Shown in pieces: positions 1 to 3,374 of a stretch of DNA of 27,657 bases (positions are counted from its first letter, which is position 1; every line of letters begins with the position of its first letter). The notes under the pieces are model-generated. The model made no database searches and was not told the origin of the DNA. It saw only the letters and a list, made by a program, of their open reading frames with translations. Source of the stretch: a virus (taxonomy: Duplodnaviria > Heunggongvirae > Uroviricota > Caudoviricetes); the IMG/VR virus record IMGVR_UViG_2703718778_000008. The stretch is one strand, 5' to 3'. The position numbers and the translations under genes are program-made.

Positions 1-2
1 AA

Positions 3-164
3 CACAACGAAAAATATCTCGACCCTACAAATGACGAGGACAATATGAGCGACACAACGATCCTGCAAAACAGTACCCAAGTTAAAAAATATCCATCTAA
101 GGCATTGAATTTTATTTGTTTGTTAAATGCTTTGCCTACATATTGCCTTGCTTTGAGAATATAA
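3..164 (+). CDS. 3' end of an unidentified ORF entering from the left window edge (...DEDNMSDTTILQNSTQVKKYPSKALNFICLLNALPTYCLALRI*)
   Basis: By my own translation, frame 3 is open from nt 3 to TAA at 162-164, with an internal ATG at 45. The region is AT-rich. A strong hairpin terminator starts 2 nt after the stop. No family recognised; this may be flanking host or island DNA. Confidence 0.3.
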   Translation, partial: HNEKYLDPTNDEDNMSDTTILQNSTQVKKYPSKALNFICLLNALPTYCLALRI

Positions 165-166
165 AA

Positions 167-200
167 AGCCCGCAGTTTTTACGCTGCGGGCTTTATTTTT
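167..200. terminator. bidirectional rho-independent terminator
   Basis: A 9-bp GC-rich stem, AGCCCGCAG (167-175) / CTGCGGGCT (184-192). It is followed by TTTATTTTTT on the plus strand and preceded by AAAAA, which reads as a U-run on the minus strand. It sits at the 3' ends of both the left-edge ORF and the hok-like transcript. Confidence 0.75.
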
Positions 201-286
201 TCTTTGTGACTTGCGTGTGAGGGTGCTACTTTCGGCCTTACCCTGACAACCGATTGACGGGGGATTACTCCCCCGTCGCGGTTTCC

Positions 287-427
287 TTACTGCTTACACT
301 GTAAGAGCGCCGCAAACTCCGCTCCCCAGATGTTCATCCGTATTTCACACAGCGAACCATGTAACATCCAGATGATGAGGATTGCCGTCACGCAGAACGT
401 GATGGCCATAAGCGATTTTTGCGACAT
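287..427 (-). CDS. hok: Hok/Gef-family type I toxin, 46 aa (MSQKSLMAITFCVTAILIIWMLHGSLCEIRMNIWGAEFAALLQCKQ)
   Basis: Absent from the ORF track because it is under 60 aa; translated by hand. SD AAGGAG lies 7 nt upstream of the ATG at 427. It has one N-terminal TM helix followed by C-V-T-A-I...S-L-C-E-I-R, which closely resembles the Hok signature (C-L-T-V-I...D-L-C-E-V-R). The 3' UTR has a 9-bp hairpin (257-278) and ends at the 167-192 terminator. Confidence 0.75.
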   Translation of the reverse strand: MSQKSLMAITFCVTAILIIWMLHGSLCEIRMNIWGAEFAALLQCKQ

Positions 428-560
428 AGCGCTTGCTCCTTTGTTGGAGAGGCGCTAACCTTCCACTTGTCTAGGGTAGGAATGGTTAGGGCCTCGGGTT
501 AAACAATATGTTTGACTCGGGGCCTTTCCACATCCGGCCTTCAGGTTTTCCTTCCAGCCG

Positions 561-863
561 TCAGCCGAAAGGCACCCGCGCGTAATGTACTGGTTTTAAA
601 GCCATACCGCAATCCTCCAGTTGTAGCGTTAACTGACTGCGTCCCTGATGGGATTTGCGCATTGTCTCCCGTGGAATATCTTTATCGTGGAAGATCAACT
701 GAGGCTGGCCAATAATTCTGTGCACACTTTCCATTGTTGAAAATGTGGCGCTGCACTCAAGGTTATTGCACTGATAGTATTTGTAGCGGATGGTGCCGGT
801 ATCATTGGCGGCTTTACTGGTACGGATCCGGGCAGATGCGCCGCAGAATGGACAATGAAACAT
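561..863 (-). CDS. ogr: Ogr/Delta-family zinc-finger late-gene transcription activator (100 aa)
   Basis: Starts MFHCPFCG...YYQCNNLECSATFSTMESV, a CxxC...CxxxxC zinc motif that is near-colinear with P2 Ogr (MFHCPLCQ...CQNVNCSATF). The ATG at 863 is chosen over the ORF-track start at 938. A G-rich SD lies upstream. Confidence 0.9.
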   Translation of the reverse strand: MFHCPFCGASARIRTSKAANDTGTIRYKYYQCNNLECSATFSTMESVHRIIGQPQLIFHDKDIPRETMRKSHQGRSQLTLQLEDCGMALKPVHYARVPFG

Positions 864-907
864 TGATATACCCCCCTGGCTGAACTGGGGTTGAACTCGT
901 CGCCATT

Positions 908-2032
908 CTAACCATTGCTTTCCTTTTCGGCTATCCACTCGGGTATTCTTGCCTCCAGTTCAAGCCTTGTGGTGAAGCCGCTTCCGTCGATATTGTGTTC
1001 CACTTTTGCAATGAGCCAGTCCTGATTGTCTATTTCGGTTTTAAAGCCGGTTACCGTGCCATGCATTTCAGGGTAAAGCTCCGCTCTGCCCCGGGCCAGC
1101 GTGATGGAGAATTCAGCCGCACCGCGCTGTAATTGCTGCCACCTGGCGGCAGCTGCGCGCTGTGCAGCAATTTCATTTGGGTAGGTTTTTCTCAGAACGA
1201 ACACGTTACCTTCTGCCCCCTCCATGTAGCTGCCTTCCCGGCTGCTGCTCTTTTCAGCGTGAGTTTTTCGTTTTTTTATGTTGACGGCTTTCTTTTTGCC
1301 ATGATTCAAATCCAGCCAGTACGCCTTCACCCCTGTGTATGCCTGGCGATCGGCTATTCTGAACTGGTGACTGTCTCCGTCACTGCGTGCCAGTGCAAAT
1401 GAGGGGAGTGGGCGCCCGTCAGCTGTCACGCCGCCACCCGGCAGAATGAACAGCAGACAGCCATTTTTGACGGTAGTGATGGCTCCCAGCATATCAGCCA
1501 TGCGGGTAAGGAATGACATGTCGCTTTCTTCCGTCTGGTCGGCATGATCGATTTCAATATCCATAAGCATATCGCTTATCTGGGCTTTCAGTCCGTAACG
1601 GTGGGCAATAGCGGAAACCACGCGTTCAACAGTCACGTCGTGCCAGGATACTTCCCGTTTGACGTTAAATTCCTCCCTGAAGTCTGCGCTGTTTGCACTC
1701 AGTGTCAGCCGATCCGGAGGTCCTTCATGAGCGACCTCATCAACAATGTAGGTGCCTTTATCAACCAGAGGCTCTCCCTTCCATCCCAGCATGACTCTGA
1801 TGTGTGTTCCCCGCCCGGGGAGAGCCAGCTGCCCGTCGGCATCATCCAGCACAAGAGTGACCCTGTCTGCTTCAAACCCCCGGTTGTCTGTCATGGAAAG
1901 CGATATCACCCGGTTATTCAGTTCCTGAAGAGTGTTTTTATCCTGCTCCCTGTCCAGTGAAACGCTGAAATCAGGCATTTTCACCAGTTCTTTCAGGGGG
2001 GAATAAACCGTGTTACCGTTCAGCAATACCAT
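908..2032 (-). CDS. D: tail / late control protein gpD (374 aa)
   Basis: Contains ...ISLSMTDNRGFEADRVTLVLDDADGQLALPGRG...GWKG...VDEVAHEGPPDRLTLSANSADF...SWHD, a typical P2 gpD pattern. The start at 2032 is chosen because of GGAGGAATTATG. The longer track ORF (to 2383) overlaps FI and has no RBS. Confidence 0.9.
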   Translation of the reverse strand: MVLLNGNTVYSPLKELVKMPDFSVSLDREQDKNTLQELNNRVISLSMTDNRGFEADRVTLVLDDADGQLALPGRGTHIRVMLGWKGEPLVDKGTYIVDEVAHEGPPDRLTLSANSADFREEFNVKREVSWHDVTVERVVSAIAHRYGLKAQISDMLMDIEIDHADQTEESDMSFLTRMADMLGAITTVKNGCLLFILPGGGVTADGRPLPSFALARSDGDSHQFRIADRQAYTGVKAYWLDLNHGKKKAVNIKKRKTHAEKSSSREGSYMEGAEGNVFVLRKTYPNEIAAQRAAAARWQQLQRGAAEFSITLARGRAELYPEMHGTVTGFKTEIDNQDWLIAKVEHNIDGSGFTTRLELEARIPEWIAEKESNG

Positions 2033-2091
2033 AATTCCTCCGTTTTTCCCGCCACAGTTGCATACCAGAAACACCACCGGAATGAGTTTGG

Positions 2092-2113
2092 GTTGTATGT
2101 GTATTGCGAGAAA
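2092..2113. promoter_or_regulatory. degenerate Ogr-type dyad (GTTGT-N12-AGAAA) in the divergent D / FI control region
   Basis: The left half is identical to the half-site of the perfect dyad at 20655-20676; the right half matches 3/5. The centre (2102.5) lies about 54 bp from a predicted FI TSS (-10-like TAAAGA at 2145-2150) and about 50 bp from a predicted D TSS (minus-strand TGnTATGCA at 2067-2059). Prediction from sequence only. Confidence 0.3.
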
Positions 2114-2186
2114 CCGCAGTTCGTGAAAAAGCTCCCCGTGTTCGTAAAGATCTCTGCTGAACTCACACCAATGCAGGGTGAATAAT

Positions 2187-3374
2187 ATGGCTGAAACCCG
2201 TTTCCATGGCGTGCGGGTCCGGGAGAATGCGGATCTGGTCACGGCCATTAATGATATTGACTCCAGTGTGATTGGTATCGTGGCTGTTGCTGATGATGCT
2301 GATACAAAAACATTTCCGCTGGATAAGCCGGTGCTCCTGACGCGTGTCATGGATGTGCTGGGTAAGGCCGGAAAAACCGGCACGCTGTATAAAAGTCTGA
2401 AAGCTATTGCCGATCAGGTCAGCACCAGAGTTGTTGTGGTGCGGGTTGCTGCTGCGAAGGAGGGGGATGGTCAGCCGACACAAACGCAGCTTGTTATTGG
2501 TGAGGTCAAAAATGACGGAACCTATACAGGCATGCAGGCGCTCCTGGTGGCTGAACAGAATGAGGCTGTTGGTGTTCGTCCCAGGATCCTGGCCGTGCCA
2601 TCGCTTGACACCAAAGAGGTGGTGGCGGCACTGGTAACCGTCGCGAAAAAGCTGCGTGCCTTTGTGTATGCGGGCTGTCCCGGCTGTAATACCGTGCAGG
2701 AGGCTGTTACCTGGCGCGCCGATCTTGCTCACCGTGAAGTTATGCTGATCTGGCCTGATTTTATCGCGTACAACCCTAACAGTGGCCAGAATGAGGCTTT
2801 TCCTGCATCTGCGTATGCGTGCGGGTTGCGTGCGAAGATTGACCACGAGCAGGGCTGGCATAAATCCCTGTCCAATGTGGCAGTGAATAATGTCCTGGGT
2901 ATTTCTGTGCCGGTGTTCTGGTCGCTCCAGGCAGAGGACAGTGACGCGGAAACCCTCAATGACAAGGAGATCACCACACTCATTAAACGTAACGGCTTCC
3001 GTTTCTGGGGTAACCGGACTCTCGACACCACTACCTACACCTTTGAGACCTACACGCGTACGGCGCAGTCGCTGGCGGATACCATCGCCGAATCGCAGTT
3101 TGAAACCGTGGACAAGCCGCTGACGCCGTCGAACGTGAAGGATGTGTTAAGCGATATCCGGGCAAAACTGAGTGCCCTTGTGACAGCGGGTAAACTTATC
3201 GGGGCAGAGTGCTGGTATGACGTGGTGGATAACGGCACAACGGATCTGCGTCAGGGGATTGTGCGGATCCGCTACAGATATACGCCGGTACCACCGCTTG
3301 AAGATCTGGAGCTTCACCAGACGTTTACTGATGAGTTCTTTGACGGTGCATTTGCATCACTGGGAGGTGAGTAA
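2187..3374 (+). CDS. FI: contractile tail sheath protein gpFI (395 aa)
   Basis: Contains ...HGVRV...DADTKTFPLDKPVLLT...KAGKTGTL..SL.AIADQ...RPRILAVPSLDTKEVV...KLRAF...REVMLIWPDF, colinear with P2 FI. The ATG at 2187 has SD GGTGA 7 nt upstream. The track start at 2178 is a GTG. Confidence 0.93.
   Translation: MAETRFHGVRVRENADLVTAINDIDSSVIGIVAVADDADTKTFPLDKPVLLTRVMDVLGKAGKTGTLYKSLKAIADQVSTRVVVVRVAAAKEGDGQPTQTQLVIGEVKNDGTYTGMQALLVAEQNEAVGVRPRILAVPSLDTKEVVAALVTVAKKLRAFVYAGCPGCNTVQEAVTWRADLAHREVMLIWPDFIAYNPNSGQNEAFPASAYACGLRAKIDHEQGWHKSLSNVAVNNVLGISVPVFWSLQAEDSDAETLNDKEITTLIKRNGFRFWGNRTLDTTTYTFETYTRTAQSLADTIAESQFETVDKPLTPSNVKDVLSDIRAKLSALVTAGKLIGAECWYDVVDNGTTDLRQGIVRIRYRYTPVPPLEDLELHQTFTDEFFDGAFASLGGE

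Follow-up and report, generated by a model that had tools for sequence, protein, structure and literature searches.

A P2-like prophage in prpC with a predicted hok/sok-type toxin-antitoxin module between ogr and its attachment junction

What is encoded beyond ogr at the very end of a P2-like prophage, and can it be a type I toxin-antitoxin locus of the hok/sok kind if the usual mok leader frame is missing? We addressed this question for a 27,657-nt stretch of DNA (the window) from IMG/VR record IMGVR_UViG_2703718778_000008, a virus of the Caudoviricetes. A preliminary description had proposed a Hok/Gef-type type I toxin gene beside ogr, encoding 46 amino acids (aa) at 427-287 on the minus strand, and the proposal is borne out by profile, sequence and RNA-structure evidence. 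We conclude, with a probability of about 0.8, that window positions 163-612 are a hok/sok-type type I toxin-antitoxin cargo module that a P2-like prophage in prpC carries between its ogr gene and its attachment junction. Direct support comes from the family membership of the peptide, the homology of the leader, both predicted folds of the mRNA and their conservation, and the position of an antisense unit. The module is probably still functional. It is real but routine, being an already publicly annotated cargo element of P2-like prophages.

The hok coding sequence (CDS) occupies 287..427 on the minus strand and comprises an ATG start, 46 codons and a stop (peptide MSQKSLMAITFCVTAILIIWMLHGSLCEIRMNIWGAEFAALLQCKQ). 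Its Shine-Dalgarno (SD) sequence, AAGGAG, lies at 436..441, and the spacer to the ATG (CAAGCGCT) is 8 nt, one more than first reported; GGAG is predicted to pair with CTCC at 449-446. The core motif given earlier (C-V-T-A-I-x4-M-x-H-x2-L-C-E-I-R) is correct. The preliminary description had named the Hok/Gef profile as a check, and the peptide scores 28.2 bits against Pfam HOK_GEF (PF01848), above the gathering cut-off of 22 (E=1.4e-6), with residues 7-44 aligned to profile positions 5-42 of 42. It also matches PHROG 251 ("MokW-like host killing", moron category) over its full length (E=4e-21). In a survey of 1264 distinct Hok peptides, M1, C16, T18, L30, C31, E32 and E41 are conserved in >80% (10.1101/2025.08.07.668861). 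All seven residues are present in the window peptide (M1, C12, T14, L26, C27, E28 and E37), with spacings of +2, +12, +1, +1 and +9 that are identical to those of the family and an N-terminus four residues shorter. The variable C/Y position 48 of the family corresponds to C44. A hydrophobic run at residues 6-22 (LMAITFCVTAILIIWML), recognized by inspection, predicts a single N-terminal helix. Toxicity and inner-membrane location have been demonstrated for other Hok peptides (PMC8621323, PMC9841398).

The peptide is short, and its scores against the NCBIfam models for HokA (NF007290, 30.4 versus a cut-off of 89) and Hok (NF007279, 21.7 versus 73) fall far under the cut-offs. This might suggest a chance open reading frame (ORF), or a hydrophobic peptide unrelated to Hok, with hairpins that are ordinary structure of the ogr 3' untranslated region (UTR) and terminator. 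That reading is refuted by the Pfam score above the gathering cut-off, the full-length PHROG match, the complete set of family-conserved residues, the match of the leader to a hok-leader covariance model (see below) and the recurrence of a 433-bp module as a unit in unrelated contexts, including plasmids and Shiga toxin (Stx) phages, where it follows lom. The NCBIfam scores instead place the peptide outside both HokA and the NCBIfam Hok subfamily model, in a separate subfamily inside the Hok/Gef family. The Hok ORF is intact in every related locus (46 aa in nearly all, 47 aa in locus L007), with one contig ending inside the gene. The ratio of nonsynonymous to synonymous polymorphism (pN/pS) for hok is 0.15 overall.

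The leader of the gene also has the form expected for a hok mRNA. A search with the Rfam covariance models, another check named at the outset, matched RF01794 at 577..417 on the hok strand, over all 157 model positions (E=2.7e-8, 44.3 bits). RF01794 is named for the "sok" antitoxin; its consensus is actually in the sense orientation of hok, beginning at the 5' end of the mRNA and stopping at the hok AUG. Because the alignment begins exactly at 577, we set the mRNA 5' end at G577. A putative promoter was assigned by hand on the minus strand, with -35 TTGCGG at 607..612, inside the 3' end of the ogr-like ORF, and -10 TACATT at 584..589, which is 17 nt after the -35 and 6 nt before G577. P88-type relatives have a different spacer but retain TTGCG of the -35, and the -10 site in relatives is TAGATT, TAAATT or TACATT (TANATT). 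At the other end, a terminator scan identified an intrinsic terminator at 165..194 (minus strand), with the stem at 167-192, as the preliminary description had it, followed by a T-run. The predicted full-length hok mRNA thus runs from G577 to the terminator U-run (163..577, minus strand, ~415 nt).

The earlier suggestion that the 3' UTR suits the long, folded hok mRNAs holds. The 415-nt RNA (577 to 163) has a minimum free energy (MFE) of -180.3 kcal/mol (z=-9.5 versus shuffles), and its ends pair. The tac element at the mRNA 5' end (GGGTGCCTTTCGGCT, 563-577, minus strand) is complementary to the fbi element in the 3' UTR (CCGAAAGTAGCACCC, 221-235, minus strand), and the 15-pair helix (GGGUGCCUUUCGGCU at 577-563 with CCGAAAGUAGCACCC at 235-221) is found in both the MFE and the centroid folds. 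In the full-length fold, the ucb element (GTGGAAAGGCCCC, 519..531, minus strand) pairs with the GAGG region, so that GGCCCCG masks CGAGGCC. A hairpin of the form UAGCGC...CUCC/GGAG...GCGCUA masks the hok SD and abuts the AUG.

The 3' UTR also contains a 9-bp GC-rich hairpin (GACGGGGGA/TCCCCCGTC) at 256..277 on the minus strand; the hairpin was described correctly before, with coordinates (257-278) that were one too high. By analogy to the R1 model (PMC9841398), it probably protects the 3' end of the active mRNA left by processing. With everything 3' of this hairpin removed, the RNA is predicted to refold. The tac element, freed of fbi, pairs with ucb, and GAGGC at 491-495 closes on GCCTC at 449-453 (dcb) to form a hairpin with a 14-nt loop, the Sok target of the shortened mRNA (449..497, minus strand). 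The GAGGC of this hairpin is the equivalent of the mok SD, and the loop (UACCCUAGACAAG) is complementary to the 5' tail of the predicted Sok RNA. The unpaired probability of the hok AUG is 0.19/0.57/0.01 in the full-length RNA and 0.99/0.82/0.31 in the shortened one. When the Sok target is blocked, the AUG recloses (0.14/0.53/0.00).

We projected both folds on 34 distinct relatives, using as controls the same structures with the pairing partners slid. Standard pairs are formed in 94.0% of the projected cells for the full-length fold and 96.8% for the shortened fold, versus 38-45% for the slid controls, and 13 and 11 pairs, respectively, are changed on both sides. By helix, the values are 99.8% for tac/ucb, 89.6% for tac/fbi, 93.5% for GAGGC/GCCUC (helix 6) and 99.7% for the 256-277 helix (two pairs changed on both sides). 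The tac element is invariant, and both tac and ucb have a majority fraction of 1.00. Since tac does not vary in this sample, and changes are one-sided (G-C/G-U) only, covariation of the tac/fbi helix cannot be demonstrated.

Is there an antisense RNA? The preliminary description had identified neither a Sok nor a mok between ogr and the toxin, an interval it correctly placed at 428-560 (the ogr-like ORF ends at 561), and it suggested that regulation may differ from that of plasmid R1. The absence of mok stands; the absence of Sok does not, and the switch appears intact. A Sok-type antisense unit is predicted on the plus strand, where it is well supported by homology. The putative promoter (433..461, plus strand) consists of TTGCTC at 433-438, a spacer of 17 nt and TAACCT at 456-461. 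The predicted RNA (~468-530, plus strand, ~60-65 nt) would start near 468-470 with a single-stranded tail of ~19 nt (GUCUAGGGUA), complementary to the target-hairpin loop, and continue as an 18-bp hairpin (488-526) and UUUCC. Its position and shape agree with those of the annotated sokC (59 nt) and sokW (71 nt); it lies 41-103 nt upstream of the hok ATG, compared with 49-107 nt for K-12 sokC and the hokC ATG. The -10 TAACCT and the 6-nt gap to the start are the same as those of sokW in phage 933W. The two Sok hexamers match the consensus at 6 of 12 positions and were not picked up by a consensus scan. They are invariant or nearly so in the 34 relatives, though they overlap the hok SD and dcb.

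Conservation of the otherwise almost invariant module is lowest at two places, the top of the Sok hairpin and the segment comprising the Sok tail and target loop (alignment columns 61-81 and 95-117, or window ~517-498 and 484-462), with majority fractions of 0.83 and 0.82 and indels of 1-2 nt. The window allele has a 2-nt (TC) insertion and GG for AT in the Sok-target hairpin, and these changes compensate each other. Such variation may mean that copies sharing a genome have diverged in Sok specificity, as DNA of this kind occurs in up to nine places per E. coli genome.

These elements suggest a mechanism, in which the transcripts, the processing of the 3' end, the toxic action and the translation of Hok without mok are inferred. 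A minus-strand mRNA of ~415 nt would encode a 46-aa Hok-family inner-membrane toxin. The nascent mRNA would be locked, with tac paired to fbi, ucb masking the GAGG box and a hairpin masking the hok SD and AUG. Slow trimming of the 3' end to the 256-277 hairpin would strip off fbi, so that tac/ucb and GAGGC/GCCUC form, the Sok loop is exposed and the AUG becomes accessible. As long as the prophage persists, the Sok-type RNA would bind the target and block expression, probably with cleavage by RNase III. When the supply of Sok ends, either upon loss of the prophage or through transcription shut-off during induction or infection, Hok would be made and the membrane depolarized.

Several observations weigh against the proposed working hok/sok module. 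The RF01794 match of 44.3 bits is below the gathering score of 59, and nothing in the whole window reaches any Rfam gathering threshold, so the match is visible in E-value mode alone. A sigma-70 consensus scan missed both the hok and the Sok promoters, which are weak by consensus; their assignment rests on conservation and on positional homology to the annotated sokW and sokC. The conservation counts are biased in favour of the tested structures, because these were obtained from the window sequence itself and most of their helices show no variation. The literature searched contains no experimental work on expression or toxicity of the 46-aa Hok subfamily. The hok GGAG stays in a 4-bp stem in both folds and is paired with p ~0.9 when the RNA is shortened. 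The mok-equivalent frame is closed by TAA at 488-486 and TAG at 473-471, and has no ATG, GTG or TTG before hok. In R1, mutations in the start codon of mok and nonsense mutations in mok abolish Hok translation (PMC9841398).

The last three of these points could equally describe a silenced relic, in which the ORF and folds are intact, Hok is never made because no translatable mok exists, and the locus has no present function, as in several inactivated chromosomal hok loci of K-12. A dead locus should decay, however, and the RNA switch elements are invariant. Among the related loci, 23 of 48 distinct mRNA variants (30 of 87 loci) lack a canonical upstream ORF that extends to the hok SD, including those of P88, Chuche and Stx phage 75/02, and all 23 keep an intact 46-aa ORF. 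In the 18 distinct CDS from this set, the pN/pS of hok is 0.18, although part of the divergence may predate loss of the frame. We therefore regard the relic as an unlikely explanation, and return to a functional module.

How, then, would Hok be translated in such a module? No ORF with an ATG, GTG or TTG start within the window hok mRNA reaches the hok SD. At the site expected for the mok start (471..488, minus strand), the window has ATT at 483-481, aligned with the ATG of mokC and mokW, which in both cases starts 8 nt after GAGG. An upstream ATG at 533-531, which is in the right frame and preceded by AAGG, was rejected as a mok start for the window copy because its frame stops at 488-486; in relatives, this ATG or the neighbouring GTG opens a frame across hok. 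The remaining 25 of the 48 variants do have an upstream ORF, which starts either at an invariant GATGTGG (ATG or GTG, at -103 or -100) or at an ATG at -130. Indels of 1-2 nt in the target hairpin distinguish the variants.

Coupling might be retained if ribosomes initiated at the AUU itself and opened the hok SD as translation of Mok does in R1. The codon is at the canonical distance (8 nt) from GAGG, and it begins a 32-codon frame, created by the 2-nt insertion of the window allele, that spans both the SD and the start codon of hok before ending 36 nt into the gene. AUU is a very poor initiator in E. coli. Relatives show CAT, CGT, CGC or ATA at this site, and indels of 1-2 nt shift the frame; there is no sign of selection for either the start or the frame. 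We consider initiation at this codon very improbable.

The other way for the module to function is without any mok leader peptide, such that the 3'-processing switch acts directly on hok throughout the 46-aa prophage subfamily. In the locked or Sok-bound RNA, the UAGCGC/GCGCUA and CUCC/GGAG stem would mask the hok SD and AUG; in the processed RNA, GAGGC would capture GCCUC and the AUG would be freed. The modelled opening of the AUG upon shortening, and its reclosing when the Sok target is blocked, lend this idea weak support. We advance it tentatively and with some doubt. Literature searches on mok-less or mok-independent hok loci, and on hok in P2-like phages, returned nothing relevant.

Comparison with known systems places the window locus among its closest counterparts without substantial difference. 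P88 gp52 (YP_009113095), Chuche CDS0012 and WP_062896806.1 (all PHROG 251) have the same ORF length, and their peptides are 87-100% identical to the window Hok. The 46-aa Hok loci of P2-like phages and prophages share the ~430-bp module (tac, fbi, predicted Sok unit and terminator) and the place after D-ogr at the prophage end, and the window copy is one allele of these. It differs in that its ogr ORF extends into the hok promoter.

The hokW-sokW locus is a prophage-borne type I system of the Hok family that is experimentally toxic and controlled by Sok (PMC8621323). Like the window, hokW-mokW-sokW of the Stx phages 933W and Sp5 has a leader with a GGGTGC... 5' end, a GAGG box and a AGGTTAGCCTC box. 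In contrast, HokW is a different peptide of 51 aa (MKQQKAML...CEVRIRTGQTEVA...), and 933W has an annotated 70-aa mokW with its ATG 8 nt after GAGG, where the window has ATT and stops in the equivalent frame. We rejected identity of the window locus with the characterized hokW-sokW, because hokW of 933W is a different gene, accompanied by mokW and located elsewhere in the phage.

The R1 hok mRNA has a tac/fbi lock, and trimming of its 3' end leads to tac/ucb pairing and an SD/dcb hairpin (PMC9841398). The same folds are predicted for the window, which would also share with R1 hok/mok/sok a small membrane toxin and a short, unstable antisense Sok aimed at the leader. Unlike the window module, R1 encodes a 52-aa Hok that needs mok translation, and it serves in plasmid maintenance rather than being prophage cargo. 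The leader of K-12 hokC(gef)/mokC/sokC aligns with the window over its full length, including the 5' GGGTGC and the AAAGCCCCGAG and CCCGAGGCC boxes. HokC itself is only 29% identical to the window Hok over 31 residues. This locus is chromosomal, with IS186 adjacent, and mokC has ATG where the window has ATT.

The module is widespread and has been annotated before. The exact 46-aa peptide is present in the NCBI database as "Hok/Gef family protein [Escherichia coli]" on 177 contigs, within a 90% cluster of 165 members, and the identical CDS is that of WP_062896806.1 ("Hok/Gef family protein") of E. coli JNEC-KY176. The genome of this strain is 97.9% identical to window 1-3000, and is annotated there with D, ogr, Hok-Gef (141 bp) and prpB. 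In phages P88 (Peduoviridae, Xuanwuvirus) and Chuche, this 141-bp CDS is likewise annotated, immediately past the late control D (tail protein) gene, and in Chuche it directly follows an ogr-like regulator. The gene was therefore unannotated only in the ORF track available to the preliminary description. That description rightly placed a cargo module at the end of a P2-like late region; the novelty it implied does not hold, as both the peptide and the ogr-hok arrangement are in public annotation.

DNA related to window 100-640 was identified in 1751 of 5426 complete E. coli genomes, in 198 phage records and in 34 plasmids. From a search with an alignment of 15 homologs, we fetched 90 related loci, mostly IMG/VR prophages of 33-38 kb. 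Comparison with other P2-like prophage ends, also proposed at the outset, confirmed the arrangement: as in P88, an ogr homolog is directly upstream of hok in 79 of the 90 loci, and D is also present in 66. More generally, hok is enriched in prophages: IMG/VR contains 6290 homologs, and prophages account for 23% of hok genes versus 5% expected (10.1101/2025.08.07.668861).

The neighbouring ogr/Delta-like zinc-finger gene (561..863, minus strand) encodes 100 aa (Pfam Ogr_Delta, E=7e-16); Ogr of P2 has 72 aa. Its last ~17 codons overlap the hok -35, the -10 and the mRNA 5' end. The distance from the end of ogr to the hok ATG is 120-139 nt in three related loci and 200-219 nt in 71. The terminator scan gave no hit in the interval from ogr to hok, whose promoter is contained in the ogr ORF; thus ogr transcripts should read through hok. 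They probably end at the hok terminator, which is the sole terminator downstream of ogr and is common to P88-type relatives.

Beyond hok lies the host sequence. Window positions 8-82 are 83% identical to the region upstream of E. coli K-12 prpC plus the first 38 nt of that gene, and a plus-strand ORF at 45-164 begins MSDTTILQNST, like PrpC, and then enters phage DNA. Thus, the P2-like prophage sits in the 5' end of prpC, and its insertion splits prpB from prpCDE. The hok gene is the outermost prophage gene, with the junction ~85 nt beyond its terminator. The repetitive extragenic palindromic (REP) array found between prpB and prpC in K-12 is absent from the closest genome (L001).

We made some further observations on database records. 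In about 40 IMG/VR loci of length 3141, besides L010, L015 and L032, the contig ends exactly 3 nt past the hok stop. The predicted prophage boundary was cut at the gene end, and those records consequently omit the hok 3' UTR with fbi and the terminator. At its gathering score of 59, RF01794 overlooks the 46-aa Hok subfamily. The RefSeq record of 933W contains an unannotated 46-aa hok between lom and ST933Wp67 (NC_000924.1 45660-45800; 7661-7801 of locus L093). As this is present besides the annotated mokW/hokW/sokW (58460-58734), Stx phages have two distinct hok loci, of which the 46-aa one is not the subject of the published hokW-sokW work. A scan of genome contigs for related hok loci yielded six, of which three are labelled Planococcaceae, Vagococcus and Xanthomonas. 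These three copies (L005, L006 and L008), on contigs of Planococcaceae bacterium UBA3378, Vagococcus sp. WN89Y and Xanthomonas pisi DSM 18956, are near-identical enterobacterial hok genes (72-89% peptide identity), and most likely represent contamination or mis-binning of Enterobacteriaceae DNA.

For the prophage, the finding means that its outermost 450 bp would be a self-contained addiction or lysis-modulating module. Several roles are possible. The module may kill cells that lose the prophage, or it may aid lysis on induction, by analogy to the different hokW-sokW locus of Sp5 (PMC8621323). It may also exclude other phages, an activity reported for R1 hok/sok. For annotation, we suggest naming the gene that follows ogr a Hok/Gef family type I toxin and listing with it an antisense Sok-type RNA; the gene escapes any ORF cut-off of 60 aa.

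The wider interest lies in the roughly half of the relatives, sequenced phages among them, that are without a usable mok and yet have a Hok under purifying selection. A coding mok frame would not tolerate indels of 1-2 nt. If Hok is made without mok, the hypervariable, indel-rich Sok-tail/target-loop segment would be free to diversify, and each copy could have its own Sok specificity in genomes with as many as nine related loci. If confirmed experimentally, the retention of Hok in relatives without mok would qualify the textbook rule, derived from R1, that hok translation requires mok.

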